Positions 16,838-40,097 of a stretch of 64,000 nt of DNA are shown piece after piece. The notes beneath the pieces were generated by a model. That model was given only the letters and a program-made list of their open reading frames with translations, was not told the DNA's origin and searched no databases. The stretch's first letter is position 1. Each line of letters starts with the position of its first letter. Source of the stretch: Escherichia phage KKP 3715; the sequence record OR067834.1, one strand, 5' to 3'. The translations under genes were made by a program, and so were the position numbers.

Positions 16838-16898
16838 AACTGGCTTACTGTAGAGTAAGTTACCTATATACGATATAAGTTTGAACAGGAAACATGCT

Positions 16899-19800
16899 AT
16901 GTCAACATTTGACCGTCTGGCAGGTTTCGCAGACAGCATCACTAATGCTAAGCAAGTCGATGTCTCTACTGCAACCTCTCAGAAGCAAGCTGCACAAGGG
17001 CAAAGCCCTTTCCAATTAACCCCAGAGAATGCTTACAATCTCCAGACTGGACGAGTAGGTAATCTTGGAATCGGTGCATTCGAACCAGATTCACTTCAGG
17101 CAGATTTCACTCAAGCCTCCCCATTAGAAATCATTAATAAATACGGTAATGAGCAAGGTTTACAGATTCTTAATAGCCGAGCTAATGCTGCTGATGTTGT
17201 ACGTCAGGACTTATCTAAACAGCGTACTAACGCAGAAGCATTTGGCGATACTCTTTCTGGTGTTGGTCTTGGTGTTGCTAATACCCTTGGGGGCATTGCT
17301 GCTCTTGGCACAGGTCTGGTCAATGATAATGCCGGGGCAACCATTGCTTCCGGGATGGATTGGTTGAATGAAGGCGTACACAATCTCCAGTCTGATGCAC
17401 TGAATGCTACCCGTAAAGTTGTTCAGAATCAGAACCAGATTTCTGCTCAAAAGAACCAGAAACTCTATGAAGAAGACATCAAAAATGGGGAGAGCGATTT
17501 GGTTGCCTCCTTGTCTCGCATTGGTCGTGACGCTTTCGATTCTGTTGCTAATACACTTGATAATGGTATGGCTGCTTCCGACGGACTGAGTGAAGGGGTT
17601 GGTTCCCTCTTTACTGGTGGTCCACTTATTCGTGGTGTATCTGCACTTGGTAAAGTAATGGTAGGTGGTGATAAAGCTGTTAAGGGTATTACCTTAGCTG
17701 CTGGGTTAGGTTCACGCCCTGCACAGGTTGCATTGTCTGCTGGTCGTGTTGCTGCACCTGCTATTGCAATCGGTGGTATGGAAGCTGGTGGTGCATACCA
17801 ACAGACTGCTTCTGAAATCATGAAGATGTCCCATCAAGAATTGGCAAGCAAGTCTCCTGTTTACCAACAACATATTGCTGATGGATTATCCCCTGATGAA
17901 GCACGTCGTCAGACTGCATCTGAAACAGGTATCATTGCTGCTGGCTTAACTGCTCCAGTTGCTGCTGCTACCGGCCCATTGGTATCTCGCTTTGAACTTA
18001 ATCCACTTAAGGTAGGTTCACTTGCAGGTGCTGGTTCTAATATGCTGCGTGAGACTGTAGAGGAAGGTATTCAGTCAGGCTTTGGTCAATATGCCCAGAA
18101 CCGTGCAATCAAGGAAAATGTTGATGCATCCCGTGACGTTCTCAAAGGAGTCGGTGAGCAAGCAGGTCTGGGTGCACTTTATGGCTTCGGTAGTGCTGGT
18201 GTTGCTCAAGCTCCTGGTGCAACTGTTAAAGCTGCCGGTGCTGCTGCTGGACCTGCTCTTCGTACTACTCTGGCTGGTGCTTCTCTGGTTGGTAAAACAT
18301 TAGCAAAAGCTGCATCTCCTCTTACTAATATCCTGGTTCAACGTGGTGAAGAAGTTGCTAAGCGTAATGAACAAGCATCCCCTGTAGCTGATGCTACGGT
18401 TAATGCTGCTGCACAGGAAGCTGCTGCTCAGGCAGAGCAAGCACAGGCAACTGTACAGGAAGCAGTAGATGCAATGGATATCTCTCCAGAAGAGAAAGCT
18501 GCTGCTACCCAATATGCTGCTGACTTAACTCAGGCAATGAAGTTTGATCCAGTAGAATTGGAACAAGCTAATCCAACAATCCGTGAAGCTGTTTCTGGTT
18601 CCACTAACCGTGTAGAAGCTATTCAGAAGATGGCTGACCTGGTTAATACTGCCGAAGACCCTAACGTTCAAATGGAAGCAGCAATCCAGATGTATGACAA
18701 TATCATGTCCATGGATAGCTTCATTAACCGTGACCCGGGTGCTCTGGCTAATCTGGAACAGGGTTCCCCTGCTGCTGCAATTGTAGACCAGTTCTCTGGC
18801 CTGATGGCTAACGTACAGAATACCCCTAAAGTACTTCGTGCATTCCGTGCTATTCATTCCATGATTCAGGAACAGGCTGAAGCAGGTAAGCTGAAAGCTA
18901 CTGAAGAAGCTAACCAAGCCCAGGCAAATAACATTGCTATGGCTGCTGATGTATCTCCAGAAGTGCTGGATGCAGATTCAGTGAACATGGTTCTGAAACA
19001 TGCAAGTGAAGGTAAGATTACATTAGGGAATCGTCAACGTGCTGCCCTGCAATCTGCTGCTGCCTTGTTACAGGGTGCACGTGAGTTCGACGCTAAAGCA
19101 GAAGAACTAGGCTTACGTCCTCAAGACATTGTTAGTAAACAGATTAAAACCGATGAGTCTCGTTCTAATGAAGGACAGTACTCTGCGTTGCAACATGCGA
19201 AACGCATTCGTTCTGCGTATAACTCTGGTAACTTCGATTTGGCCTCCGCTTATCTGAGCGACTTTATGAAGTTCGCCCAGCACATGCAGAATAAGGTCGG
19301 AGCGTTGAATGAGCATTTGATTTCGGGGAATGCGGATAAGAATAAGTCTGTTCATTATCAGGCTCTCTCGCCTTCCCGTGAATGGGTACGTAGTCGTACT
19401 GGCCTCGGTGTCAATCCTTACGATACCAAGTCTGTTAAGTTTGCCCAGCAAGTAGGACTGGAGGCCAAAACCGTAGCTGATATTGCTAATGCACTTGCTA
19501 CGGCTTACCCGGAGCTTAATGTTTCTCATGTGAAAGTTACCTCGTTGGATTCACGTCTGAACAAGCCAGCTGCCCAGGTAGTTAAAGAGTTCCGTCAAGG
19601 TGGTCTTGATGCCACTCAGTCTCAACAGACTAATGAACCAGTGAATCAGGTTGATGAATCTCCTGCACCAGTGCAAGAGGACACTACTACTGTACAGCCT
19701 AAAGCTAAACCAGTGGTAGAAAATAAGACTGCTCCTACTAAGGAGACTAGTCCAAAAACAGAAGAAGTCTCTACTACTAAGTCTGAAACAGTAGAAGCTA

Positions 19801-22800
19801 CCCCCACTAATGAGGATACCATCCAGGAAGTAGCCAAAACCAAAACAGAAATGGAAACAGTGTTCCCTGTCTATAACAATGAAAAGACACCGAACCAGTT
19901 CCTGAAAGCATTTACCTTACCAGAGGAACCTAAGTCTCGTACCGTTGGTTCTGAATCTCCTTTGGCTGATATTAAGCAAGCACTGTCTTCTGTTGCTCGC
20001 TTTGAGGCATTTACTCAAAAAGAAAATAACGTTCTCACAGGTGATGTGATTAAGCGTTATCAGGACTTAATGGACTTTGGGGAAACTCTGAAGACTACTT
20101 TGTCTGAACGATTGGCTAAGTTCCTTGCTAATAAGAACGTTGGTAAACGTTTTGCAGAAGGTACTGAAGCTAACCGTTGGGTAGGTGGCAAACTACTTAA
20201 TATCGTTGAACGAGATGGTGACACCTTTAAGTTTAATGACCAGTTGTTAGAGACTGCTGTACTTGCTGGTCTGCAATGGCGACTGACTGCTACACAGAAT
20301 GCTGCCATTAAAGACATGAAAGATGTGGCTGCTATTACTGGTGTAGAAGCATCTTTGTTACCAGAAGGTATTCTGGCTGAGTTTGAGAATGCCCAGACTC
20401 TGGTAGAAGCTACTAACTCACTGGCTCAGAAGATTGAATCCTACTGGGGTTTAAACCGTAATCCTAATGCACCACTTGGGTATACAAAAGGCATCCCAAT
20501 GGCAATGGCTACAGAGATTCTGTCTTCCCTCATTGAGATGGGTGAAGTTAAAGAATCTATGCTGGATGTGTCCGAGATTGACCCAGACTCCAATAAGACT
20601 GTCGGTCTGTATACTATTGAGAAGCTGGATGACAACGATGCCATTAACAAATTCCCTACTGCTATTGAGGAAGCTGTCCTCTTAGAACCAGAAGAGAAAA
20701 TGTATTTTGATGATGATATTCCTTCTGTGGCTCAAACTCAGTTGCGTAACCCTGCTGTTAAGAATACCCCAGAACAGAAAGCTGCACTTAAAGCTGAACA
20801 GGCTACTGAGTTCCGTGTACATATGCCGATGGTTAACTTCTATGAAGCATTAGGCCGTGACAACATTCTGGAACTGATGGGTGCTGGTACTCTTAATCCT
20901 GATTTGCTGAATAAAAACACTGCCAAATCTTTGGAAGGTAAAAACCTGTCCGTATCCATGGCATATGATTCTCTGTTCGGTGTAATTAATCAGATACGAG
21001 AACAAGAGAATGGTCTGGATACTCCTATTCACTACGGTTACAACATGACTCGTGTAGGTCGTATGCAGATGCTTGGTAAGAACAACCCACAATCCAGTAA
21101 ACTGGTTCGTGAAGCAATTCTGCCGACCTTCTCTACTATCGACTTGAGTAATGAAAACAGCCAAGCATTCTCTGACTTCCAGCTAGGACTGGCTCAGGCA
21201 TTAGGCATCAAGGTACATAAAATGTCACGTGAAGCTATGTCTGAAAATCTGACCAAAGCTCTGGAAGGCAATCTGAAGCCTGCTGTTGATATGATGGTTG
21301 AGTTTGATAAGGCTGGTTACTTACCTACTGATGCAGTAGATATTCTGAAGACTTCTCTGGGTGATAACAAATCCTTCGTGGCTCTCATGGCTCTGATGGA
21401 ATATGCCCGTTACCTGAACAGTGATGACCGTGCTAATTTTACTACTCCCTTGTACGTTGAAGCTGATGGTGTAACCAACGGCCCAATCAACGCAATGGTA
21501 TTAATGACTGGTGGTAAGTTCACGCCCGACTGGATTAAGAACACTGCCAAAGGTGGTTTGTTCTTTGGTCGTGCTGGTAAAACGATGAACGAACACTGTT
21601 CTATCGACGATAATGTTGACTTGTATGAAGCATCTACCAATGGTCTGCAACAAGCACTGAATGAGTTACGTACTACTTACCGTAACAACGTTCCGGTTAT
21701 GAGCCAGATGAATCATCTCCAGAAGTTAATGGACTTGTTCATTAAAGACTTTAATCTGAACGAAGACGGTACTCTGGACCTGAAACGTGGTATCGCTAAA
21801 AACCCACTGACCATTACCATCTATGGTTCTGGTGCACGTGGTATTGCTGGCAAGATGGTTAGTGCAATTACTGACACCATCTACGAACGCTTCAGTGACG
21901 TTCTGCAAGCACGGGCTGCTGACCCTAGCATTTCCCCAGCTATGGCAATGTTTGGTAAGGAGGCTGCGTCTGAGGCTGATGCTCAGGCTATGCTGGATAC
22001 TTTCCTTACTTCTATGGAAGCACTGACTGGCAATGTTCCAGTTATGCGTAAAGGTGAATTGTCTATTCAGCAAGTAGATGGTGCTCTGACTGGTAAGTTA
22101 GACCCTCAGAAGTTTACCGTATCCGGTAATGCTCTGAAGAACTTACAAGAGAACATGCTCCACCTGTTCGTTGAACCAATGCGTACCGGTATCCGGAATA
22201 CTGTTGGTGAAGGTCTGATGCACTCTACTGAGAATTTGCAGAAGGCTACCCAGATTCAATCTCTGGTATTGCAGGATATGTTCCAGCAAGCAGTACAGGC
22301 TAAGCTGGCAGAAAAAGAAAAAGACCCAACCTGGAAGAAGGGTGATTTCTTAACGCAGAAAGAACTGAATGAAATCCAGGAATCATTATCTCCACTGGCT
22401 CCAATGATTGAGACTGGCTCACAGACTTTCTACATTGCTGGCAGTGAGAATACTGATGTTGCTAACCAAGTACTGGCTACTAACTTAGATGATCGTATGC
22501 GTGTGCCAATGAGCATCTATGCTCCTTCACAGGCAGGTGTTGCAGGTATTCCATTTATGACCATCGGTACTGGTGATGGCATGATGATGCAGACCCTTTC
22601 TACTATGAAGGGTGCTCCGAAGAATACCCTGAAAATCTTTGATGGTATGAACATTGGTATCAGTGACATTACTGATGCAAGTCGTAAAGCTAACGAGGCT
22701 GTATACACTTCCTGGCAGGGGAACCCTATCAAGAATGTTTATGACTCCTACGCTAAGTTCATGAAGAATGTAGACTTCAGCAAACTGTCTGATGAAACCA

Positions 22801-25800
22801 AACAGGCTATCGCTAAATCTGCTCTGGAATATGACCTGCGTGAGGGTGCTACCGATGACCTGTTACGTGCAGGTGCTGAACAGATTGAACGTAACCTACG
22901 TAACATTGCTCTGGGTGTAGATATTCGTCACAAAGTGATGAACCAGGTACAGACCACTGTTGACCAGATGGCTGCTGTAGGTGCTCCTTATGTGAACAAC
23001 GGTAAAATCTCTCTGGAAGGTCTGACTGTAGACCAGCAAGTAGCTAAGCTAAACGAACTATTTGATGCTGAATTAAATAAGCGTCGTGATGCAGTACGTG
23101 CTGCTAAAGCAGAACCTGTTAAAGAAGTGCCAGCTATGGAACAAGTTGGTCGTGTACTGAAGTCTGGTGTACGTCTGTTGTCTAATACTGCTATCACTAA
23201 GCTGGCTAAAGAGATGACTTCTGAACAGCAAGCAGTATTGAAAGAAGTACAGAAATCCCTTGCTGCTAAAGACTACAAGGTTGTTTACGGTACTCCTGCT
23301 CAACTGGATGCTTATGCTATTGAGAAGAACATTACTCGCCCAGCACCGGAAGATATTGAAGCTGCCGAAGCTGGTAATGCATATGGCTGGACTAACTTTG
23401 ATGATAAAACCATCTACTTAGTTACCCCTTCCTTAGAGACTCTGGTTCATGAATTAGTACATGCTTCTACTTTTGAATCTGTACTGGCTCACTATGAGGG
23501 TACTCCTAACGAAGCAGTCCAGAACATCGAAGATCTTATGAACCAGTTCCGTACTCTGGATGTTAAGAACGAATCCCCGGCAGTACGTGAAGCATATGCT
23601 GATGCACTCAATACCATTAACGGTCACTTGTCTAATGGCTTTATTGAACCTGCAATGGCTAAAGCTGCTGCACTGAATGAGTACATGGCATGGGGCTTAA
23701 CCAATCGTGAACTGATTGGTAAGCAGAAGAAGACCACTGCACTGAAAACTATGGTTCAGTCTGTGTATGAAGCAATCAAGCGTCTGGTATTTGGTCGCAA
23801 GAAAGCACCTGCTAATGCAGATGATATGTTCTCCGGATTACTGTTTAACTCTTCAGTAGTTATGCGTGGGCAGGCTCCTACTGCTGCTGTATCCAAAGAC
23901 ACTACCTTGTTCCATAACAAAGCATATGGAGATAATACCCGTCTTGAAGAATTGGGGCAGACCTTTGATAAGCTGATTACTAACTACATTGGTTCTGAAC
24001 CAGTGCAGCAAGTAATTCGTAAAGGTAAGTTCTCTGATGCAGTAGTGAATGCAACTAAAGTAACTCGTGATGTTCAGGCTTATGGCTTTACCATGAATAT
24101 GCAGGAACAGCGATTGTTCACTAATATCGTTGCTGCTTTGGCTACTGAAGCTGCTATTAGTCCGGCTGCTCTTTCTCGTGCACAGGAATACTATGCACAC
24201 GTTACTAAGAACCTGACCGTTGAATCATTCATGGCTGACCCGGATAGTACTAACCCTGCTGACCGTTACTATGCTCAACAGAAGTTCGATACCATCATGG
24301 GTGCTAACAATATTGAGTTTGATGCACAAGGTCGTTCTTCCTTACTGCCTACCTTTGTTGGTCTGGCAATGGTAAGTGAAGAGGTGCGTAACGTACTGGC
24401 TAACATTCCTGTTATGAAAGCAGATAAGAAATCTGGTAATACCGTTGATGCAATGCTGACTAACATTGGTACTGCTGCAATGTCTAGCCTGAACGCTCGT
24501 GTAGCAGGTGATACCAAAGCTACTAACGTACAGGAAGGTATGGATGCACTGGCTCAGACAATCATGCAGACAAGTCTTAATGCACAGTCATTCTATGATT
24601 CCGTTGCTACTCCTAGTGGTAATGCTATTGACCGTGCTAACCAGTATCTGGTGGATTCTATTGATGCACTGTCTACTCGTGCTTTAGAAAGTGCTCGTGA
24701 AGTTGCAGCTAATACCAAGAACCCATTGGTTAAGGGTGCTGCTCATGCTGCACAATTGGTGGCTGCTATTGCTACTGAGAAGAACGGTGCAATCGTGGCA
24801 GAAGGTGTTATGGCTGCAATGAACCAGGGCAAGGTATGGCAACCTTTCCACGACTTGGTTAATGACTTAACTGGTCGTACTAAGAGCAATGCTTCTGTAT
24901 ACGATTTGATTAAAGCAGTTCGTGCACAGGTACAGGCTGACCGTCAGCAGTTCCGTGAACATCTGCCTACCACTATCGCATCTAAGTTCAGCCGTAAGCT
25001 GACTAACGATGAGTGGAAAGCAATGCACACCGGTATGGGTAAAACTGACTTAGCTGTTCTGCGTGACACTATGTCTCTGGCTGAAATCCGTGACCTGCTG
25101 TCTGACCAGAAGATTGTTGACCGTGAAGTGAATAAGCTGGAAGCAGATTTGCAGAAACAAGCTGGTCGTAACTGGCCTCTGATTAACCGTAAATCTAAGC
25201 AACTGGCTCAGTACATGATTAACGGTACGGTCGGTAATAACCTGCTGCGTAATGCTACTGCAATCTCCCGTATGCTGGGTGAACGTCAGGCTGCTCGCTC
25301 TACTGTAGATGTAGCTCAACTGGATAAACTGATTACCCTGTATGCACTGGAAGCAATGAACAAGTCCGACCGTGAGACGTTATCTTCACTGGCTCAGACA
25401 GAAGTTGAGGGAATGGACTTTGCTACTTCTTACCTGGTTGGACAACGTAAAGATGAAATGGCTAAAGCCAAGTCTGATATGCGTGCAACCCTGAACCAGT
25501 ACAAAGGGCATATTCCTAGTGAGACTAAACAGGGTGTTAATCTGATTGTTGCTGAAGATAGCCAGTTTGCTGATTTGATTGAGAAGTCCTATGTACGTCT
25601 GGGTACTTATCAAGGTAGCTCTGCTAACCGTGGTCCGGCACGTAGCTATTACTTTGCACCAGTACAGGCACAGGCTCCTTTCTCACAGGGTATCCTACAG
25701 AACGTTCGTAATACTGCTGGTGGTGTAGACCTCGGCACAGGCTTTACGATGGGTTCCATGGTAGCTGGTCGTATTACTGACAAGCCTTCCGTAGACCGTA

Positions 25801-27251
25801 TCACTAAAGCACTGGCTCGTGGCGAACGTGGTAATGAACCACTGCTGCCTGTATATGACGATAAAGGTAATGTAGTTGCCTATGAGCAATCCATTGACCC
25901 TAATATGCTGAAGCACATTGAGGGTGAGAACCATCTTGCCCGTGCAATCGGCGTATGGCGTGGTCGTCAGGTGGAAGAAGCTAAGGCTCAGCGTTTCAAC
26001 GATATGCTGATTGAGAACCTGCATAGCATGTATGAGAACGACATTAAGATGTCTGCCTCTAATAAGTCCCAGTACGTTAACCTTCTTGGTTCTAAATTGG
26101 ACCCAGTAACTGCTGATGCTCTTAAGCTAATGAATAGTGAAACCCGTCAGAAAGCAGAGAGTTTGTTCGGTGAGGGTGAACTGTGGGTACGTCGTGACAT
26201 GCTTAATGATGCACTTGGTTATCGTGCAGCTTCTGTAGGTGATGCCTGGTCTGGTAATTCTCGTTGGTCTCCGGAAACATTGGATACCTTTAAGAAAGCT
26301 ATGCTGGGTGTATTTGGTAACCGTGCCTATAAGTACACAATGGGTGGTGAGAACCTGGTTCAAAACTTAGTTAAAGAAGCTAAGACTCTGATTGTAGTTA
26401 AGTCAGTAGTCGTACCTGCTGTTAACTTCTTAGCTAACCTTTACCAGATGGTTGCCCGTGGTGTACCGGTTAAGAACATTGCTAAGAGCATTCCACAGAA
26501 GACTGCTGAGATTAACCAGTACCTTAAATCACGTCTGCGTCAGGTAGATGCAGAAGCAGAATTACGTGCAGCTACTAACCCGAACCAGATTCGTAAACTT
26601 AAGGCTGAGATTCAGTCCATTACTGATAGCCATAAGCGTATGAGTATCTGGCCTCTGTTGGAAGCCGGTGAGTTCTCTTCAATTGCAGACGCTGGTATTG
26701 GTCGTGATGACATCCTGATTACTGAAGGCAAACTCCACGAATACATGGATAAGCTGGCAGATAAGTTACCTAAGTCTGTGCGTACTGCCGGTCGTTATGC
26801 ACTTATTACTAAGGATACTGCTCTGTTCCAGGGTATCCAGAAGACGGTTGAGTACTCTGACTTTATCGCTAAAGCAATCATCTATGATGAACTGACTCAG
26901 CGTAAAGGTAAGACTCGTGAAGAAGCACTTGGGCGTGTAACGGAAGAGTTCGTTAACTATGACCGTTTACCTGGTCGCTTCCGTGGGTACATGGAAAGTG
27001 TTGGTTTAATGTGGTTCTACAACTTTAAGATTCGTTCAGCTAAGGTTGCTGTGTCCATGATTCGTAATAACCCTGTACATGCAACAATGGCGATGCTGGC
27101 TCCAACTCCTACCATGTTTGGTAACGTTGGCTTACCTATTCAGGACAACATCTTTAGTATTGCTGCTAAGGGTAGTCTGGATTACTCATGGGGCTTTGGT
27201 CAGGGTCTTCGTGCTCACAACCTGAACCCTTGGATGAACCTGGTAAACTAA
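16899..27251 (+). CDS. virion-encapsidated RNA polymerase (N4 vRNAP-like giant protein)
   Basis: About 3450 codons from the first ATG (AGGAAA RBS). Contains a single-subunit RNAP motif B-like RGIAKNPLTITIYGSG (Rx3Kx7YG) and a motif A-like EADGVTNGPINA; T/E/P/K-rich low-complexity linker near codons 910-990. Size and position match N4 vRNAP as recalled. Confidence 0.7.
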   Translation: MSTFDRLAGFADSITNAKQVDVSTATSQKQAAQGQSPFQLTPENAYNLQTGRVGNLGIGAFEPDSLQADFTQASPLEIINKYGNEQGLQILNSRANAADVVRQDLSKQRTNAEAFGDTLSGVGLGVANTLGGIAALGTGLVNDNAGATIASGMDWLNEGVHNLQSDALNATRKVVQNQNQISAQKNQKLYEEDIKNGESDLVASLSRIGRDAFDSVANTLDNGMAASDGLSEGVGSLFTGGPLIRGVSALGKVMVGGDKAVKGITLAAGLGSRPAQVALSAGRVAAPAIAIGGMEAGGAYQQTASEIMKMSHQELASKSPVYQQHIADGLSPDEARRQTASETGIIAAGLTAPVAAATGPLVSRFELNPLKVGSLAGAGSNMLRETVEEGIQSGFGQYAQNRAIKENVDASRDVLKGVGEQAGLGALYGFGSAGVAQAPGATVKAAGAAAGPALRTTLAGASLVGKTLAKAASPLTNILVQRGEEVAKRNEQASPVADATVNAAAQEAAAQAEQAQATVQEAVDAMDISPEEKAAATQYAADLTQAMKFDPVELEQANPTIREAVSGSTNRVEAIQKMADLVNTAEDPNVQMEAAIQMYDNIMSMDSFINRDPGALANLEQGSPAAAIVDQFSGLMANVQNTPKVLRAFRAIHSMIQEQAEAGKLKATEEANQAQANNIAMAADVSPEVLDADSVNMVLKHASEGKITLGNRQRAALQSAAALLQGAREFDAKAEELGLRPQDIVSKQIKTDESRSNEGQYSALQHAKRIRSAYNSGNFDLASAYLSDFMKFAQHMQNKVGALNEHLISGNADKNKSVHYQALSPSREWVRSRTGLGVNPYDTKSVKFAQQVGLEAKTVADIANALATAYPELNVSHVKVTSLDSRLNKPAAQVVKEFRQGGLDATQSQQTNEPVNQVDESPAPVQEDTTTVQPKAKPVVENKTAPTKETSPKTEEVSTTKSETVEATPTNEDTIQEVAKTKTEMETVFPVYNNEKTPNQFLKAFTLPEEPKSRTVGSESPLADIKQALSSVARFEAFTQKENNVLTGDVIKRYQDLMDFGETLKTTLSERLAKFLANKNVGKRFAEGTEANRWVGGKLLNIVERDGDTFKFNDQLLETAVLAGLQWRLTATQNAAIKDMKDVAAITGVEASLLPEGILAEFENAQTLVEATNSLAQKIESYWGLNRNPNAPLGYTKGIPMAMATEILSSLIEMGEVKESMLDVSEIDPDSNKTVGLYTIEKLDDNDAINKFPTAIEEAVLLEPEEKMYFDDDIPSVAQTQLRNPAVKNTPEQKAALKAEQATEFRVHMPMVNFYEALGRDNILELMGAGTLNPDLLNKNTAKSLEGKNLSVSMAYDSLFGVINQIREQENGLDTPIHYGYNMTRVGRMQMLGKNNPQSSKLVREAILPTFSTIDLSNENSQAFSDFQLGLAQALGIKVHKMSREAMSENLTKALEGNLKPAVDMMVEFDKAGYLPTDAVDILKTSLGDNKSFVALMALMEYARYLNSDDRANFTTPLYVEADGVTNGPINAMVLMTGGKFTPDWIKNTAKGGLFFGRAGKTMNEHCSIDDNVDLYEASTNGLQQALNELRTTYRNNVPVMSQMNHLQKLMDLFIKDFNLNEDGTLDLKRGIAKNPLTITIYGSGARGIAGKMVSAITDTIYERFSDVLQARAADPSISPAMAMFGKEAASEADAQAMLDTFLTSMEALTGNVPVMRKGELSIQQVDGALTGKLDPQKFTVSGNALKNLQENMLHLFVEPMRTGIRNTVGEGLMHSTENLQKATQIQSLVLQDMFQQAVQAKLAEKEKDPTWKKGDFLTQKELNEIQESLSPLAPMIETGSQTFYIAGSENTDVANQVLATNLDDRMRVPMSIYAPSQAGVAGIPFMTIGTGDGMMMQTLSTMKGAPKNTLKIFDGMNIGISDITDASRKANEAVYTSWQGNPIKNVYDSYAKFMKNVDFSKLSDETKQAIAKSALEYDLREGATDDLLRAGAEQIERNLRNIALGVDIRHKVMNQVQTTVDQMAAVGAPYVNNGKISLEGLTVDQQVAKLNELFDAELNKRRDAVRAAKAEPVKEVPAMEQVGRVLKSGVRLLSNTAITKLAKEMTSEQQAVLKEVQKSLAAKDYKVVYGTPAQLDAYAIEKNITRPAPEDIEAAEAGNAYGWTNFDDKTIYLVTPSLETLVHELVHASTFESVLAHYEGTPNEAVQNIEDLMNQFRTLDVKNESPAVREAYADALNTINGHLSNGFIEPAMAKAAALNEYMAWGLTNRELIGKQKKTTALKTMVQSVYEAIKRLVFGRKKAPANADDMFSGLLFNSSVVMRGQAPTAAVSKDTTLFHNKAYGDNTRLEELGQTFDKLITNYIGSEPVQQVIRKGKFSDAVVNATKVTRDVQAYGFTMNMQEQRLFTNIVAALATEAAISPAALSRAQEYYAHVTKNLTVESFMADPDSTNPADRYYAQQKFDTIMGANNIEFDAQGRSSLLPTFVGLAMVSEEVRNVLANIPVMKADKKSGNTVDAMLTNIGTAAMSSLNARVAGDTKATNVQEGMDALAQTIMQTSLNAQSFYDSVATPSGNAIDRANQYLVDSIDALSTRALESAREVAANTKNPLVKGAAHAAQLVAAIATEKNGAIVAEGVMAAMNQGKVWQPFHDLVNDLTGRTKSNASVYDLIKAVRAQVQADRQQFREHLPTTIASKFSRKLTNDEWKAMHTGMGKTDLAVLRDTMSLAEIRDLLSDQKIVDREVNKLEADLQKQAGRNWPLINRKSKQLAQYMINGTVGNNLLRNATAISRMLGERQAARSTVDVAQLDKLITLYALEAMNKSDRETLSSLAQTEVEGMDFATSYLVGQRKDEMAKAKSDMRATLNQYKGHIPSETKQGVNLIVAEDSQFADLIEKSYVRLGTYQGSSANRGPARSYYFAPVQAQAPFSQGILQNVRNTAGGVDLGTGFTMGSMVAGRITDKPSVDRITKALARGERGNEPLLPVYDDKGNVVAYEQSIDPNMLKHIEGENHLARAIGVWRGRQVEEAKAQRFNDMLIENLHSMYENDIKMSASNKSQYVNLLGSKLDPVTADALKLMNSETRQKAESLFGEGELWVRRDMLNDALGYRAASVGDAWSGNSRWSPETLDTFKKAMLGVFGNRAYKYTMGGENLVQNLVKEAKTLIVVKSVVVPAVNFLANLYQMVARGVPVKNIAKSIPQKTAEINQYLKSRLRQVDAEAELRAATNPNQIRKLKAEIQSITDSHKRMSIWPLLEAGEFSSIADAGIGRDDILITEGKLHEYMDKLADKLPKSVRTAGRYALITKDTALFQGIQKTVEYSDFIAKAIIYDELTQRKGKTREEALGRVTEEFVNYDRLPGRFRGYMESVGLMWFYNFKIRSAKVAVSMIRNNPVHATMAMLAPTPTMFGNVGLPIQDNIFSIAAKGSLDYSWGFGQGLRAHNLNPWMNLVN

Positions 27252-28280: not shown

Positions 28281-28319
28281 AATAAAAAAGTCCCCCAGAG
28301 TGACGGCTCTGAGGGACTT
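28281..28319 (-). terminator. Rho-independent terminator closing the tRNA-containing transcript
   Basis: On the - strand: imperfect GC-rich hairpin (GTCCCTCAGAG...CTCTGGGGGAC) followed by TTTTTTATTT. Confidence 0.5.
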
Positions 28320-28551
28320 AGTGACTTTAACGCAGTCAACGAGGCAGGCCGTCAAACTACTATCACTACAGGGTTAAGCGACCATGGGTTGATAGCCCGA
28401 TAGTAGTAAGACGTAGGTTTGGATTTCTAAGTGTTACCTTCACTAGCGAAATTCCCGTCGAGGGGAATAACAATACATTAGCAGCCACTGGACTGTCTTA
28501 CCAGTGTTGTCTTTAGAGTGCTGTGCAATCAGGACTATGTTACTGCTGAAT

Positions 28552-28628
28552 GGGTGTCCACTACTGGATTTGAACCAGTGACCTTCTGATTATTAGTCAG
28601 TTGCTTTCCCAGTCTAAGCTAAGTGGAC
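28552..28628 (-). tRNA. tRNA gene, isotype undetermined (anticodon loop reads CUAAUAA)
   Basis: Hand-folded on the - strand: 7-bp acceptor stem GTCCACT/AGTGGAC, D-stem GCTT/AAGC, perfect T-arm ACTGG-TTCAAAT-CCAGT, discriminator A, then CCCA. Anticodon stem has 4 bp plus an A-A mismatch. Confidence 0.5.
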
Positions 28629-28637
28629 ATAATATGA

Positions 28638-28710
28638 TTACCCGGGCAGGAATCGAACCTGCGTCCTAGTTAGTTTACTAGTGGGGCTTTACCACTAAGC
28701 CTACCGGGTA
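28638..28710 (-). tRNA. tRNA gene, isotype undetermined (anticodon loop of 6 or 8 nt, not 7)
   Basis: Hand-folded: 7-bp acceptor stem TACCCGG/CCGGGTA, D-stem GGCT/AGCC, T-arm GCAGG-TTCGATT-CCTGC at canonical positions 49-65, no encoded CCA; lies 9 nt from the previous tRNA. Confidence 0.45.
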
Positions 28711-29524
28711 TTAATGGAAGGGTAGTGCAGCCTTACACTGCCACAGATTGACTGCCTCGTAACTAGTACGAGCTACCCATAATAGGGTGAGGCTGTACCT
28801 CTGGGTGTAGCAGCCCAGTGTTGTGCACCTACTGTAGAACATAAGTACAGCCTCAATTAGGTGAGTCATGCCAGGCTCTAACTGGCTCCTTCTTCGCAAT
28901 CCTTACATACCCCTACATAATTATTGCGTTAAGCTTTTTTTGTTTAAGTTTAAGTGAAGGCGTTCTTGCTGACTCATTGTTTGGTTTCCTGATTACATGG
29001 GCTTCCACCATATCATGACGAGTTTGAGTCTGTGGAGCGACTTCCTCAATGCAGTTACCTGCCACCAGTAAACTGGCGTTCTTTGGTCCATCGTCTTCAA
29101 CCATACTGTCTTAACCATATAGGGATTCAGGCAGTTTTGGCGGTAATCAGGAAATCTGGTTTGAGATGGGAGTCCGAGTCCTGTACAGCCTTACCGTCTC
29201 CACATTGGCAGCGTATCTAGAATAGCACTTCCGGGTACGGATTTAACTGTTACATCTCAAATAGGGTAGGGGCGTCCAGAGGTTTCATCTAGTACTTACG
29301 CCGTCGTATTTACGACTTACCCCCATAATTCCTTTAATCCAAAGAAATAATCTTTAAATATTCTCTTGTTAGATGAGGAGTTTGACGAATGACTAGTTCG
29401 TTACTACCTCGTTGTTTGCCATAAGTACCTGGCGACTTCTATTTGGTTTTACCAATTCAGAGTAACACTCACACAAGAATGTGTCTTTGAATACCGGGAA
29501 GTATAAACGAGTGCTACTTTGAAT

Positions 29525-29648
29525 TGGTTACCAGTGAAGGATTCGAACCTCCGGTTGGAGTCTATAGCTTACCGCAGCAGCCCTCCAATCTAGCGGTGTC
29601 ACACTTAGTCCAAACTTGAACATGTCAAGCCATCTCGTGCAACTGGCA
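29525..29648 (-). ncRNA. tRNA-like element, about 121 nt (T-arm, acceptor stem and encoded CCA; over-long body)
   Basis: 3' end GGAGG-TTCGAAT-CCTTC then ACTGGTA-A-CCA; the only good 5' partner (TGCCAGT) lies about 120 nt upstream; internal hairpins (CTTGA/TCAAG, TTGGAG/CTCCAA) sit where D and variable arms would be. Confidence 0.3.
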
Positions 29649-29650
29649 AT

Positions 29651-29716
29651 TGGTTCCGGCGTCTGGACTCGAACCAGAACACTCATGTCGTGCACGACAC
29701 TAGTACCTACACCGGA
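29651..29716 (-). ncRNA. tRNA-like element, about 63 nt plus CCA (no D-arm, palindromic central hairpin)
   Basis: T-arm TCTGG-TTCGAGT-CCAGA, acceptor TCCGGTG/CGCCGGA with one G-U, encoded CCA; the centre is the palindrome TGTCGTGCACGACA rather than an anticodon arm; abuts the previous element with a 2-nt spacer. Confidence 0.3.
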
Positions 29717-29779
29717 ATAGTTGCCAGGGATTCCACCTGGCTCCATCTGTTTTTATAGTCACTCAGATATCGTCTGGAC

Positions 29780-29860
29780 TATGACCATCTGGGGATTCGA
29801 ACCCTCATCTCGGTGGCCAACCGTGCATTTGCCTCATGCTACTCTGGTCATAGTTGGTCC
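29780..29860 (-). ncRNA. degenerate tRNA-like element
   Basis: Contains GGGTTCGAATCCCC (a T-loop with GC stem) and a D-arm-like GCAT-GAGGCAA-ATGC, but acceptor and anticodon stems pair poorly by hand. Confidence 0.2.
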
Positions 29861-30530
29861 CCCGTTTCTAATACATGGACGGGAGAACTCCACGATCGTT
29901 TGTTAATCAGGACGACTCACTCCTGACTGAGGTTACGCTGTTAGGCGACCATCAGATACGCTTCTTCGTTTGCATTTATGTTATTGGTTCGTTTCTAAAA
30001 AACCGCATAATCGCTACGAAAACTATCAATGAGTACACTCTGTGGATTCATTTTACAGGGACTTCATTTCATTCCCTGACCTCAATCAAATGTACTCATT
30101 GATAGCCCATAATAGGAGGGAGGGGACGAATCCTCCCTTTATACCCTATGTTGCATGTAAGATCTAACAGTTCGGTGTTGTAGACGGATGGGCTTATGCT
30201 TACCGGCATTAAACTCCCGCCCCCTTATTGGGCTGGGTTAATTAATATACTCAACATTGAGCAGTTAGTTTGATAAGGGATCTGAAGCCTTATCCCAAAG
30301 ATACTAACCTTTGGGATATAGCCTAAGATTCAGAAATGGCCCCTATAGGAGAGGCCATTGATTAACCCGAATGTTGCTTTACATTTTCTGAGGTAACCAA
30401 TTCTTAAAATAGTCTGTCTGACGGATGGGGGGCCACCCCTAGCGTCAGTGCCATACGGCAAAGATTAAGTTAAGAAAGGTTATGATAGGAGTTCCTATCT
30501 CAAAGGATTCTGACAGAACCCTTCACGATA

Positions 30531-37521: not shown

Positions 37522-40097
37522 GCGAATGCCTTTTGAATTATTTGATGAACTTCTTCTGGGGTAGCGTGATTTGGAATCTCAATCTCGTTAGCCCACGTTG
37601 GGTAAAACAAGGATAGTTCCCCACCCAAACCAACTTCTGGATGAGCAATATCAGGATGGTCTTGCCAGTTAACGGCTTCAACCAAGTGCTTGTTCGTGTA
37701 CTGCAAGGTATCCATGTTGTCACGAATCATGAAGTACTGAGCATCATGAATGTGAATACTAGGACGTATATCTAACCTGAACTCACTGGCTCTGACTTTA
37801 CGCATAAATTCTGAACCAGCACGGTTATTCAGTAGACACCAGCTTTGCCCCAAGGCATTACCAGCAGTTCTACCTTCTGCTTCTGCTTCATATGGAGTCT
37901 TACATGTCCCACGTAATACCTGAGCCAGTAAAGGAGTACGCACTCTCAAACCAAATGCAGCAGTTACATAACCAGTCTTAGCAGCTTCGTCTAGTTTAGC
38001 CTGAACCCACATATCACTAACTACATAAAGGTCGTGATAACGTTTCTCTGTTGTCTTAGCTTTCTCTTCCGAGAAGCCACAGTTTTTCATCAAGCCCATA
38101 TACGTGCCACCATAGGTAAGCAAGAATGTTGGGGCTTTAGAATCACTACGCAAGTGCTTGTACTTTGTCTGAATAGAATTAATTGACTCAACCGTATCTA
38201 CAATGTCTGGCATCTGCTCACCAAAGTAAGCATACGCACGGAGACTATGCCCATCATAACCATCGGTATACACCTTAAGTTTCTGAGGGTCTTTCGTAGT
38301 CAATGCAGATATTCTGTCTTCCAGCGAGGCGAAGTCCAAACCGCAAAATATCCAGCCAGGAGGGGCTTCGAAGCATTTCTTAATCTTCTTGGCATATTTA
38401 GAACCGGATGGAATTGTTTGTAGATTTGGCTCTGAAGCCGATAGCCTACCGGAGACTGTGCCTCCCAGATTGAGGTTGCCGAATAGGTAGTGCCAGCCAT
38501 CTGGCCCCGGTTGGGCATTCCTGAAAGCTGGTATAAAACTAGTGATAATCTTATCCACGAGTTTATAGTCGATAAGTGCATTGAGCAGTTCCTTAACATC
38601 TTCACTCTGCGTATGTGTACGCAGTGCTTTAATAGTGTCACCGTCAGTAGCAGGTTGCTTGCTCTTAGTAAGACCAAGAACCGGTAAGCCAATATAATCA
38701 AATAACAGTTTCTGTAATTGTGGACCGGAGTTAGGATTAAACTCGATGTCACAATCAGCCAGAGTTACCTGCTTCTTCTTTAGCTTAGCATTCTTATCGT
38801 CTACCCATTCTTGACGAAGCATCAGGGTGAAGTTTTTCATGAGCTTAGACTCACGAATAGTTTTCAGAGCCTGGTTCCTGTCAGTTTCCATCTCTTCAGC
38901 TACTTGGTTAACGGTTTCCATATTCATGGGCATACCGGTTAACTGCATCTGAATAATGTCTTCACAGGCTGGTTTAAAGATGTTGTTGTAAACATCCAAT
39001 TGGTTATCAGCAATGAGAGTATCCCAGTGCTTCTCGTAGGTGTACCACGTACACAAACCATCAATGAGGTTGTAGCGTAGCAGTTGCTCATTAGGAATAA
39101 GACGAATGTCTTTAATATCATCCTGAGCATAGTTACCAGCATATTCCTGAGCCTGATCTTTCAGGCTAAGGTGATTGCCAGCACAACTGTTAGTAGCCAG
39201 GTAGGTGATTAACTTAGTACAGTCCCAATTACGTAGCATGATTTCCATGCCATGCAGTAAGCCTTCTGTATCAATCAGGTTATCCATGAATAACTGATAG
39301 ATAAGTATGTACACGTCATAGCTAATGTTGTGATACATCTGCCGTTGAGTGTACTTAATGAAGAACTCACGTAACAGGTTACGAACAACATCATTCCTGT
39401 TAATACGCCCATAAGGAGCTTCAGTAGCCCCCTTAATCGGCTCGTAGTCCACATTAAAGGCTATGCCTTGTGTCTTACTCCAACAGAACGTAATCGTTCC
39501 TATGCCTGCGTTATAGTGCTTTAAACCGAATGATTCGATGTCTATAGCCAGAGGCTTATTCATCTCAAGCAACTGGTCTAGCCAGGCTTTAATTTTTTCG
39601 GGTGTATCTGGATAGGCTTCAAACTCAATGATTCCCTGACCTGGTTCAGCATACTGTCCACGGATGTGGTTAAGTAATGCAACCATACCCTGAGCAATCT
39701 TGGCTTTTACTACAGGTGGGTCATAAAAGACCTGTCTGTAACTAGGTGTATAGATAACCTTCTGTTTACCCCATACTGAATCACAAACATAGCCGAGGTT
39801 AGCCTCTGCTTTAGCTTCTTTAGTCAGTATTTTAAAGTAGTCAGAATCGGTACAGATAATGTACTGAGTTTCTGCATCATCCAGTACTTGTTGCAGTTCC
39901 TGCTGTATGAACTCTTTAATCTCCCTTGCAGGAGTTTTCTTCTTACCTGGGGCAGAATGAAGTTCAAGGAAGATGAAGTCTTCCATGCTTAGGTCATAAG
40001 GCAGCAGGTAGGTTTTAATCATCTCCTCCCTTCGGATTTGATGACCGAGGATAGCAATAGGATACTTGCCAGTATCCTGAGAGGTGATGTAACGCAT
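37518..40097 (-). CDS. DNA polymerase, family A (Pol I-like) with 3'-5' exonuclease domain
   Basis: 859 aa; exo motif DIESFG; polymerase motif A DFASLEDRI, motif B RSDSKAPTFLLTYGG (K...YG), motif C IHIHDAQ; AAGG RBS. Confidence 0.85.
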   Translation of the reverse strand: MRYITSQDTGKYPIAILGHQIRREEMIKTYLLPYDLSMEDFIFLELHSAPGKKKTPAREIKEFIQQELQQVLDDAETQYIICTDSDYFKILTKEAKAEANLGYVCDSVWGKQKVIYTPSYRQVFYDPPVVKAKIAQGMVALLNHIRGQYAEPGQGIIEFEAYPDTPEKIKAWLDQLLEMNKPLAIDIESFGLKHYNAGIGTITFCWSKTQGIAFNVDYEPIKGATEAPYGRINRNDVVRNLLREFFIKYTQRQMYHNISYDVYILIYQLFMDNLIDTEGLLHGMEIMLRNWDCTKLITYLATNSCAGNHLSLKDQAQEYAGNYAQDDIKDIRLIPNEQLLRYNLIDGLCTWYTYEKHWDTLIADNQLDVYNNIFKPACEDIIQMQLTGMPMNMETVNQVAEEMETDRNQALKTIRESKLMKNFTLMLRQEWVDDKNAKLKKKQVTLADCDIEFNPNSGPQLQKLLFDYIGLPVLGLTKSKQPATDGDTIKALRTHTQSEDVKELLNALIDYKLVDKIITSFIPAFRNAQPGPDGWHYLFGNLNLGGTVSGRLSASEPNLQTIPSGSKYAKKIKKCFEAPPGWIFCGLDFASLEDRISALTTKDPQKLKVYTDGYDGHSLRAYAYFGEQMPDIVDTVESINSIQTKYKHLRSDSKAPTFLLTYGGTYMGLMKNCGFSEEKAKTTEKRYHDLYVVSDMWVQAKLDEAAKTGYVTAAFGLRVRTPLLAQVLRGTCKTPYEAEAEGRTAGNALGQSWCLLNNRAGSEFMRKVRASEFRLDIRPSIHIHDAQYFMIRDNMDTLQYTNKHLVEAVNWQDHPDIAHPEVGLGGELSLFYPTWANEIEIPNHATPEEVHQIIQKAFA

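Follow-up and report, generated by a model that had tools for sequence, protein, structure and literature searches.

A genus-wide tRNA-Ile(AAU) gene and a conserved non-canonical tRNA-like RNA lie side by side in the RNA array of Gamaleyavirus coliphages

The 64,000-nucleotide (nt) stretch of Escherichia phage KKP 3715 analyzed here (sequence record OR067834.1, referred to as the window) belongs to a Gamaleyavirus coliphage (G7C/N4-like, Schitoviridae), as judged from 113 phage records matching the 701 bases around two adjacent minus-strand transfer RNA (tRNA) genes. Both genes lie just past the open reading frame (ORF) of the virion RNA polymerase and had been singled out in a preliminary description for their anticodon arms. 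The reading favored here, with a probability of roughly one half, is that they represent two separate functional RNA genes at the 3' end of an RNA array. One is a tRNA-Ile with the encoded anticodon AAU (28555-28628), an ordinary-shaped decoder with a rare anticodon, and the other is a non-canonical tRNA-like RNA (28638-28710), a tRNA look-alike; the two should be explained separately. Both appear from their patterns of variation to be under selection, and decay was rejected for either of them.

ARAGORN recovers exactly two tRNA genes in the 64-kb window, and both loci score above the gathering threshold of 29 bits with the Rfam tRNA model RF00005. The tRNA-Ile, called tRNA-Ile(aat) at 28551-28629(-), is matched full-length at 28555-28628 with 66.0 bits (E=3.8e-12). 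The tRNA-like RNA at 28638-28710(-) is called 'tRNA-???' with a 2-nt 'anticodon (ac)' by ARAGORN, and the Rfam match over 28638-28710 (41.7 bits, E=1.9e-05) skips its entire anticodon arm as a local end. For this second RNA, the minimum free energy (MFE) and centroid structures given by RNAfold are both cloverleaves (-28.6 kcal/mol, z-score -2.7), and the acceptor, D and T arms are intact in both genes, as had been stated at the outset.

The anticodon arm of the tRNA-Ile is canonical, although its uppermost stem position is a conserved A27.A43 mismatch. The earlier hand fold, which placed the gene at 28552-28628, gave a 7-nt loop CUAAUAA with A at the wobble position, and the same loop is seen in the Rfam alignment (28590-28596, minus strand, with AAU at 28594-28592), in agreement with the aat call of ARAGORN. 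In standard numbering it reads C32 U33 A34 A35 U36 A37 A38, where U33 and the purine at 37 are canonical and only A34 is unusual. The preliminary description of both anticodon arms as non-canonical thus holds for the tRNA-like RNA and not for the tRNA-Ile, to which the proposed recoding function is inapplicable in view of its normal 7-nt loop. The gene had been annotated earlier as tRNA-Ile(aat) in phages Bp4 and CU10EC, and a 2025 paper on UE phages names it tRNA-Ile-AAT (PMC11927229). It is a real, functional-looking tRNA, already annotated and published, whose interest lies in the rarity of A34.

Homologs of the tRNA-Ile gene collected from 25 additional loci in GenBank phages and in IMG/VR and metagenome contigs comprise 10 distinct sequences; the gene is conserved in every Gamaleyavirus locus examined, and the CUAAUAA loop is identical in all 10 distinct sequences of the genus. 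Compensatory changes are found at pair 2:71, which occurs as U-A, U.G or C-G, and at pair 29:41, which takes the same three forms and is U-A in the window and C-G in most relatives; pair 5:68 is A-U or G.U. Nucleotide diversity within the gene is 0.041 versus 0.22 in the 9-nt spacer separating it from the tRNA-like RNA (28629-28637, minus strand; 0.219), which served as a fast-evolving local control, and 0.26-0.37 in the distal flanks.

The identity set of E. coli tRNA-Ile, said to have been defined by Nureki and colleagues in 1994, reportedly consists of A35, U36, A37, A38, A73, C4-G69, U12-A23, C29-G41, and G34 or lysidine-34. The phage gene carries A35, U36, A37, A38, A73, C4-G69 and U12-A23, with A at position 34. 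Judging from these identity elements, the host isoleucyl-tRNA synthetase would be expected to charge the phage tRNA, which is very probably a working isoleucine decoder. The closest host tRNA was rejected as a guide to amino-acid identity because the best E. coli blastn matches are uninformative, being a prophage tRNA-Thr(UGU) (79.7%) and plasmid tRNAs with a CAU anticodon (75%) that are annotated as tRNA-Ile and called tRNA-Met by ARAGORN.

Analogy with engineered tRNAs suggests that A34 probably stays unmodified. Such a tRNA would read AUU by Watson-Crick A:U pairing and would add decoding capacity for the commonest isoleucine codon of the phage, which the host reads only via G:U wobble. In the 48 ORFs of the window (17,333 codons), AUU accounts for 60% of the isoleucine codons (33.5 per 1000), AUC for 28% and AUA for 11% (6.2 per 1000), and U-ending codons are favored generally (UGU 69%, CGU 63%, ACU 47%). 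When an orthogonal tRNA was given 15 different A34 anticodons in E. coli, three of the 15 were converted to inosine, named as ACG, AUG and AAG and not AAU, while tRNA-AAU read C- and G-ending codons barely above detection and left the A-ending codon unread (Schmitt et al. 2024, PMC11066159). Overexpression of an Ile-tRNA-AAU increased both the growth rate and the final optical density of E. coli in at least two media (bioRxiv 10.64898/2026.05.15.725136). In E. coli, an AAU anticodon is reported to escape inosine modification, to read mainly U and to be well tolerated. The engineered AAU tRNAs share an A encoded at the wobble position with the phage tRNA-Ile, as do the rare bacterial A34 tRNAs tRNA-Arg (ACG/ICG) and Mycoplasma tRNA-Thr (AGU); the phage tRNA stands apart as a natural gene of the isoleucine box that is fixed across a virulent coliphage genus and lacks UACG, the motif recognized by TadA.

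Alternatively, A34 could be deaminated to inosine (I34) to yield a eukaryote-style IAU anticodon that would read AUU, AUC and AUA and relieve the need for the scarce host lysidine tRNA at AUA, although this must be considered improbable. The 6.2 AUA codons per 1000 speak for it, AUA being a rare codon in E. coli. It is also favored by the fact that encoded A34 is nearly always inosine in nature (PMC11066159, introduction). However, E. coli TadA is highly specific for the loop of tRNA-Arg2, whose recognition motif U33-A34-C35-G36 differs from the U-A-A-U found here, and the three modified anticodons and the lack of A-ending reading by tRNA-AAU cited above also argue against conversion. In addition, a scan of 20 window ORFs revealed no deaminase of the CDA/TadA type; the sole 'deaminase' match there, a dCTP deaminase of the dUTPase fold, was rejected as a tRNA adenosine deaminase, and none of the CDA fold is annotated in the first 50 kb of the related phage Bas96. 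Eukaryotic tRNA-Ile (AAU to IAU) has the same anticodon and amino-acid box as the phage gene. Its conversion is carried out by ADAT2/3, for which the phage has no evident equivalent, and action of the host TadA would not be expected.

In the tRNA-like RNA, it is the anticodon arm that departs from the canonical form. Its family is characterized by a 7-base-pair (bp) acceptor stem (UACCCGG/CCGGGUA), a D arm with G18 G19 (GGCUU-AGUGGUA-AAGCC), a canonical T arm (GCAGG-UUCGAAU-CCUGC) and a discriminator of A, G or C; most members also encode the CCA that comes after it. The place of the anticodon arm is taken by a displaced hairpin at 28666-28681 (minus strand), composed of CUAGU (28681-28677), the loop AAACUA (28676-28671) and ACUAG (28670-28666), which lies 2 nt out of register with a 3-nt linker and a 2-3-nt variable region. 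This is the CTAGT/ACTAG pairing that had been folded by hand, with a loop of 6 nt, or alternatively 8 nt on a 4-bp stem, and it coincides with the MFE and centroid structures of RNAfold. Automated folding likewise produced no standard 7-nt loop, as ARAGORN reports a 2-nt anticodon, Rfam skips the arm and RNAfold closes 6 nt.

All registers with a 7-nt loop were also tried by hand and gave a maximum of three of the five stem pairs, and U33 is absent in every register of the Gamaleyavirus form. The reading of C-[U/C/G]-A as the anticodon (positions 34-36) was rejected because it leaves only three of the five stem pairs, and the 8-nt loop reading UAAACUAA has A at its second position and therefore fails the +1 frameshift-suppressor pattern, which calls for U33. 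Among the relatives, the Gamaleyavirus hairpin takes the form CUAGU-AAAC[U/C/G]A-[A/G]CUAG, in which loop position 28672 is U, C or G and the closing pair 28677:28670 is U-A or U.G; the change from U-A to U.G in PW8 and NAN33P5 retains the fifth pair. The form found in the Enterobacter phage SABI and Klebsiella phage 05F01 group, CCCA[G/A]-[A/G]ACUUAAGA-[C/U]UGGG, has a 9-nt loop and a different sequence. Pair 3:70 is C-G in 14 of 14 family sequences, and without G3.U70 the RNA is not a domain of the tRNA-Ala type or of the transfer-messenger RNA (tmRNA) type. GenBank records label the RNA tRNA-OTHER or omit it, and tRNAscan-SE reports a homolog as Undet-NNN (PMC11927229).

The family alignment comprises 14 distinct sequences from three phage lineages, in which 98.4% of the stem cells are paired and all four helices are kept. 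Double-sided changes were observed in seven of the 22 pairs, namely acceptor pairs 4 (C-G or U-A) and 6 (G-C, G.U or A-U), T-stem pair 1 (G-C, G.U or A-U) and four pairs of the anticodon stem. Loop length, by comparison, is not conserved, with 6 (or 8) nt in the Gamaleyaviruses versus 9 nt in the SABI/05F01 group. Within the Gamaleyaviruses the diversity of the tRNA-like RNA is 0.039, compared with the 0.041 of the tRNA-Ile, the 0.22 of the spacer and the 0.26-0.37 of the distal flanks. Because stem pairing is kept, changes are compensatory and diversity is this low, the RNA appears to be under selection as a folded molecule, the displaced hairpin included. The same contrast in diversity, together with compensatory stem changes in both genes, contradicts the earlier suggestion that either might be decaying.

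The odd arm is not private to the window, as the comparison with related phages found it in every gene-bearing Gamaleyavirus, amounting to 10 distinct sequences. The gene itself is accessory: of some 50 Gamaleyavirus-like records about 19 carry it, and gain or loss takes place as a small module. It is missing from PhAPEC7 and Bp4, where the tRNA-Ile directly adjoins the upstream sequence, and also, as judged by BLAST coverage only, from G7C, F22 and Mimir124. Unannotated homologs occur in unrelated enterobacterial phages. Using blastn, one was located in Enterobacter phage SABI (76 kb) right after the tRNA-Gln of an Asn-Asp-Tyr-Gln cluster, the relatives of SABI being Pectobacterium Cbunaviruses of another Schitoviridae genus, and another lies inside a 13-tRNA cluster of Klebsiella phage 05F01, a 147-kb myovirus of the Stephanstirmvirinae. 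Three more variants came from IMG/VR and metagenome contigs, and wider IMG/VR scans with four patterns gained only a few contigs. A segment identical to that of SABI is also present in the SonariX record; this record (PQ898399.1, 248,734 bp, 'partial genome') matches a 5,075-bp SABI query at 100% identity over its full length and may be a concatenation of more than one phage genome.

On the bacterial side, a search of 185,579 species genomes for the D arm together with the T arm as one pattern found no match, and no significant blastn match was obtained in E. coli. Two extra metagenome matches were discarded as ordinary tRNA-Trp(CCA) with the same D and T arms, and the 'tRNA-OTHER' of phiA41 was set aside as a decayed tRNA-Gln. 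As far as these searches indicate, the tRNA-like RNA is a small family confined to phage and phage-like contigs and previously noticed only as 'undetermined'. In the bacterial genome collection, its exact 21-nt 3' half is common only to canonical tRNA-Gln(UUG) genes of Bdellovibrionales, which also share the 5' UACCCGGUAG. The family adjoins tRNA-Gln in SABI and lies near tRNA-Gln in 05F01, and its U1-A72 pair is typical of tRNA-Gln; descent from a tRNA-Gln is plausible.

With regard to function, a non-decoding tRNA mimic is favored because the tRNA-body part has been kept and the codon-reading part given up, because the gene is accessory and shared between unrelated phages, and because a single loop base is variable, although the likelihood of this assignment is finely balanced. 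The tRNA body is what RNase P, the CCA-adding enzyme, EF-Tu, several synthetases, and docking toxins and nucleases read. The RNA would be made and matured in tRNA fashion by RNase P cleavage, 3' trimming and CCA addition, would not pair with a codon in the A site, and would act through its conserved parts by occupying a factor that recognizes the tRNA body. The likeliest such factor would be a host tRNA-directed defense enzyme, with a tRNA-processing or charging enzyme as the alternative. A more specific role as a decoy or anti-defense agent, which had been among the earlier proposals, is a tentative possibility that would plausibly suit a gene distributed as an accessory and shared horizontally. 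Two published reports describe phage tRNAs that counteract tRNA nucleases of the host (PMC10264068, PMC11555353).

Two other explanations of the tRNA-like RNA have to be weighed against the non-decoding mimic. A specialized decoder, such as a frameshift suppressor, stop-codon suppressor or non-triplet reader working through a contracted or expanded loop, would be compatible with the 8-nt loop on a 4-bp stem, with the canonical-looking heptamer CUUAAGA included in the 9-nt loop of SABI and 05F01, and with the CCA and T arm described above. The hypervariable position 28672 (U/C/G) could then be the central base of C-N-A (CUA, CCA, CGA) or the last one of A-C-N, resembling anticodon switching, and the nearest canonical tRNAs with the exact 3' half are tRNA-Gln(UUG), a class that yields the classical suppressors supB and supE. 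The absence of U33, the three of five stem pairs left by C-N-A at 34-36, the favored loop of 6 rather than 8 nt with a fifth pair that persists as U.G in PW8 and NAN33P5, and the variation between lineages in loop length, loop sequence and discriminator nevertheless make decoding unlikely, and recoding, as had been proposed for this gene, is disfavored on the same grounds. Moreover, over half of the otherwise collinear genomes do without the gene, which speaks against a required recoding event, and TAG ends only two of the 48 window ORFs.

It is also quite unlikely that the RNA has no function of its own, whether it is the remnant of a tRNA duplicate, perhaps of tRNA-Gln, whose anticodon arm has been lost, or is retained only as a module that aids RNase P/RNase E processing and the stability of the tRNA-Ile transcript. 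A relic would be in keeping with the presence/absence polymorphism of the gene, with the clearly degenerate tRNA-like remnants in the array (for example 29525-29598, with five of seven acceptor pairs), with the decayed tRNA-Gln of phiA41, and with a similar leader (CCTATTAT / CCATTAA) in front of each unit, as expected for duplicated units. Constraint equal to that of the tRNA-Ile beside a far more variable spacer, and compensatory change holding four helices, the anticodon hairpin too, in three phage lineages, argue to the contrary; as for a processing module, the tRNA-Ile stands alone in many genomes and hence needs no helper.

Several points count against two functional genes of the kind favored here. 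The AUU excess over E. coli is modest (about 60% against about 51%), and sequence alone is compatible with I34 in the tRNA-Ile. The 10 Gamaleyavirus sequences are close relatives, so that their conservation partly reflects shared ancestry; the effective sequence number in the covariance model built from the family is 1.5, and most double-sided changes divide just two or three lineages. The encoded CCA and the normal EF-Tu-type T stem would suit a real adaptor as well. Finally, the SABI-type loop contains CUUAAGA as C32 U33 UAA G37 A38, a Leu(UAA)-type heptamer preceded by two extra bases, so decoding by the SABI lineage through this heptamer calls for caution.

Comparison with known systems helps to delimit the non-decoding mimic. 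The phage tRNAs that evade or replace anticodon-nuclease targets in T5 and T4 resemble the tRNA-like RNA in being accessory members of enterobacterial phage tRNA clusters with anticodon-arm changes; they are working decoders with 7-nt loops and point substitutions (PMC10264068, PMC11555353), whereas the tRNA-like RNA is re-registered and lacks U33, and would be a mimic only, not a replacement. Loops that are not 7 nt long are also present in the +1 frameshift suppressors with 8-nt loops (sufD and sufJ types) and in yeast mitochondrial tRNA-Thr1 (PMC3113583), but in these a single base is inserted while U33, the purine at 37 and the normal stem register are preserved, in contrast to the 6-nt loop without U33, and the 9-nt loops of homologs, seen here. 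Literature searches for expanded-loop phage tRNAs gave nothing specific. An acceptor/T-arm module without a usable anticodon, as in the tRNA-like RNA, is found in Bacillus cereus tRNA-Other and in the stable RNAs C and D of phage T4. The tmRNA tRNA-like domain that stands alone in mycobacteriophage DS6A is a further example (PMC4131195). Some of these pseudo-tRNAs and tRNA-like stable RNAs lie within phage tRNA clusters, with roles that are regulatory, inhibitory or unknown. No sequence relationship to them was detected, and the present family forms a complete four-arm cloverleaf without G3.U70.

The covariance model also matches two other minus-strand units of the window. The first, an armless tRNA-like RNA at 29651-29716 (match at 29654-29716, 20.2 bits), has one long hairpin (GUGCAC apex) where the D and anticodon arms would be; its acceptor stem is 7 bp long, its T arm (UCUGG-UUCGAGU-CCAGA) is perfect, and ACCA is encoded. 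The unit is conserved throughout the genus and in N4 (locus L034, 12670-12735) and Klebsiella phage 05F01 (locus L019, 2287-2352), shows compensatory changes in the hairpin and the T stem, is unannotated everywhere and has no Rfam match. Because the armless RNA occurs in the array, in N4 and in 05F01, non-decoding tRNA look-alikes appear to recur in these phage tRNA clusters. The second unit, at 29782-29859 (13.9 bits), overlaps the tmRNA-like RNA described below at the 3' end of that RNA; its terminal helix of 10 bp ends in CCA. The degenerate tRNA-like element at 29525-29598 (minus strand) is called by ARAGORN at a relaxed threshold only, as 'Tyr gta', and has a good T arm (GGAGG-UUCGAAU-CCUUC) and the 3' sequence ACUGGUA-A-CCA.

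The unannotated tmRNA-like RNA occupies 29782-30107 on the minus strand and was recognized from sub-threshold Rfam tmRNA matches and a tag frame. This frame (29973-29941, minus strand) has no start codon, is preceded by AUAAAU and encodes ANEEAYLMVA followed by a stop; in relatives the tag reads ANDDVVLMAA or ANDDVILMAA, and the codons differ synonymously (GCAGCC versus GCGGCG). The SsrA tag of E. coli is ANDENYALAA. The core of the RNA matches 328 phage records, among them other Schitoviridae, siphoviruses of about 45-57 kb, Ackermannviridae and P1-like phages, and it is present in 659 of 5,426 E. coli genomes, where 557 of 707 matching places are on plasmids; all of these phage and E. coli matches are unannotated. 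Tags elsewhere read ANDDLMMAAA in P7, ANEEMYLAVA in Carvaje and in a lambdoid prophage, and ANDNTFLAVA in Vi01. To be reported as tmRNA by ARAGORN, these RNAs require its threshold to be lowered to 80-90% of the default. No conserved tRNA-like domain bearing G3.U70 emerged in the tmRNA-like RNA: the window does contain a long-range acceptor helix that has G3.U70 (GGGCUAU/AUAGUCC), which was rejected because it is not conserved in PhAPEC5, IME11 and Bp4, and a PK1-like pairing was dismissed in the absence of consistent covariation. A 2014 tmRNA census lists phage tmRNAs only in mycobacteriophages and Bacillus phage G (PMC4131195), and literature searches for phage tmRNAs in N4-like phages gave nothing specific.

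Further variation is seen around the tag. In IME11 and PhAPEC5 the region past it is replaced by a ~200-nt insert bounded by a long helix (CAACAGGWAAGAGCA...UGCUCUUUCCGUUGUG), whose strands resemble a hairpin upstream of the tag, a motif also present in Carvaje, P7 and the lambdoid prophage; the insert may represent an alternative pairing or an inserted element. At the Bp4 site equivalent to 29782-29859 lies a different unit, called tRNA-Cys(ACA) by annotation tools. A genus-wide A34 habit based on this call, which is annotated in Bp4 and UE phages, was considered and rejected. The call sits just downstream of the tag ORF, overlaps only the tmRNA T-arm match, has no Rfam tRNA match and a poor anticodon stem, and has no counterpart in the window; it is treated here as a putative tRNA-like domain and not as a second A34 tRNA.

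A broader possibility, which is doubtful at present, is that the tRNA-like RNA, the armless RNA (29651-29716) and the tmRNA-like RNA (29782-30107) form a one-array toolkit of translation-RNA mimics. If true, these RNAs would engage host factors that recognize the tRNA body or stalled ribosomes, with tRNA-directed defense nucleases, acceptor-end-modifying toxins, and SmpB and the ribosome-rescue machinery as candidate targets, and the odd anticodon arm would have been selected for binding and not for decoding.

The array in which these units reside spans 28288-30108 (minus strand), about 1.8 kb without a convincing entry in the ORF list, and contains the tmRNA-like RNA, several tRNA-like units, the tRNA-like RNA and the tRNA-Ile. 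The neighboring virion RNA polymerase gene is a 3,456-codon ORF at 16881-27251(+). The array corresponds by synteny to the tRNA gap that separates gp47 from gp48 in N4 and holds four canonical tRNAs (Asn-GUU, Ser-UGA, Thr-UGU and Pro-UGG). The best records for the 701-base query were Escherichia phages E20, PW8, SP5M, ST4, G7C, IME11, PhAPEC5/7 and Bp4. A pattern scan located a terminator-like hairpin with a 13-bp stem and a T-run at 28288-28319 (minus strand), about 235 nt downstream of the tRNA-Ile, and the annotations of PhAPEC5, PhAPEC7 and G7C show a terminator at the corresponding position; this hairpin (28319-28288) is the probable 3' end of the array transcript, on which the tRNA-Ile and the tRNA-like RNA are probably co-transcribed. 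Between the tRNA-Ile and the hairpin, the 60 nt at 28495-28554(-) show a diversity of 0.054, nearly at the level of a tRNA, with 0.256 in the following 200 nt, and may be a further small RNA element ahead of the terminator.

A recurring leader motif (CCTATTAT, CCATTAA or CATATTAT) abuts the first base of each RNA unit on the minus strand, for example at 30109-30116, 28783-28790, 28711-28717 and 28629-28636, which suggests duplicated leader-plus-RNA modules or a common processing signal. The tRNA-like RNA is preceded immediately upstream by a ~140-nt module (28711-28850, minus strand), which holds two hairpin-rich units, GAGGCUGUAC...GUACAGCCUC and GGGUAG...CUACCC, and is present only in the window, E20 and a few metagenome contigs. 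PBM-3, IME11 and others do not have this module, and PhAPEC7 and Bp4 have neither the module nor the tRNA-like RNA. The listed ORF 28711-28899 is probably spurious. Apart from the array, the Sak4-like annealing-protein gene of Bas96 (38380-39928 of locus L029) is annotated as two joined segments that enclose a 'restriction endonuclease' gene (38969-39460), an arrangement suggestive of an intron or a homing-endonuclease insertion.

Bacteria have almost no wobble-A tRNAs, and the genus-fixed tRNA-Ile(AAU) offers a natural test case in E. coli, in that phages carrying it could reveal how unmodified A34 decodes, and at what costs and gains. The neighboring family illustrates that some conserved RNAs of phage tRNA clusters receive only an 'undetermined' label from automated tools and are overlooked in papers. 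A conserved, non-decoding look-alike would be a candidate for mimicry, a possible third anti-defense strategy beside evasion and replacement, and the tmRNA-like RNA suggests that phages may also interfere with ribosome rescue.

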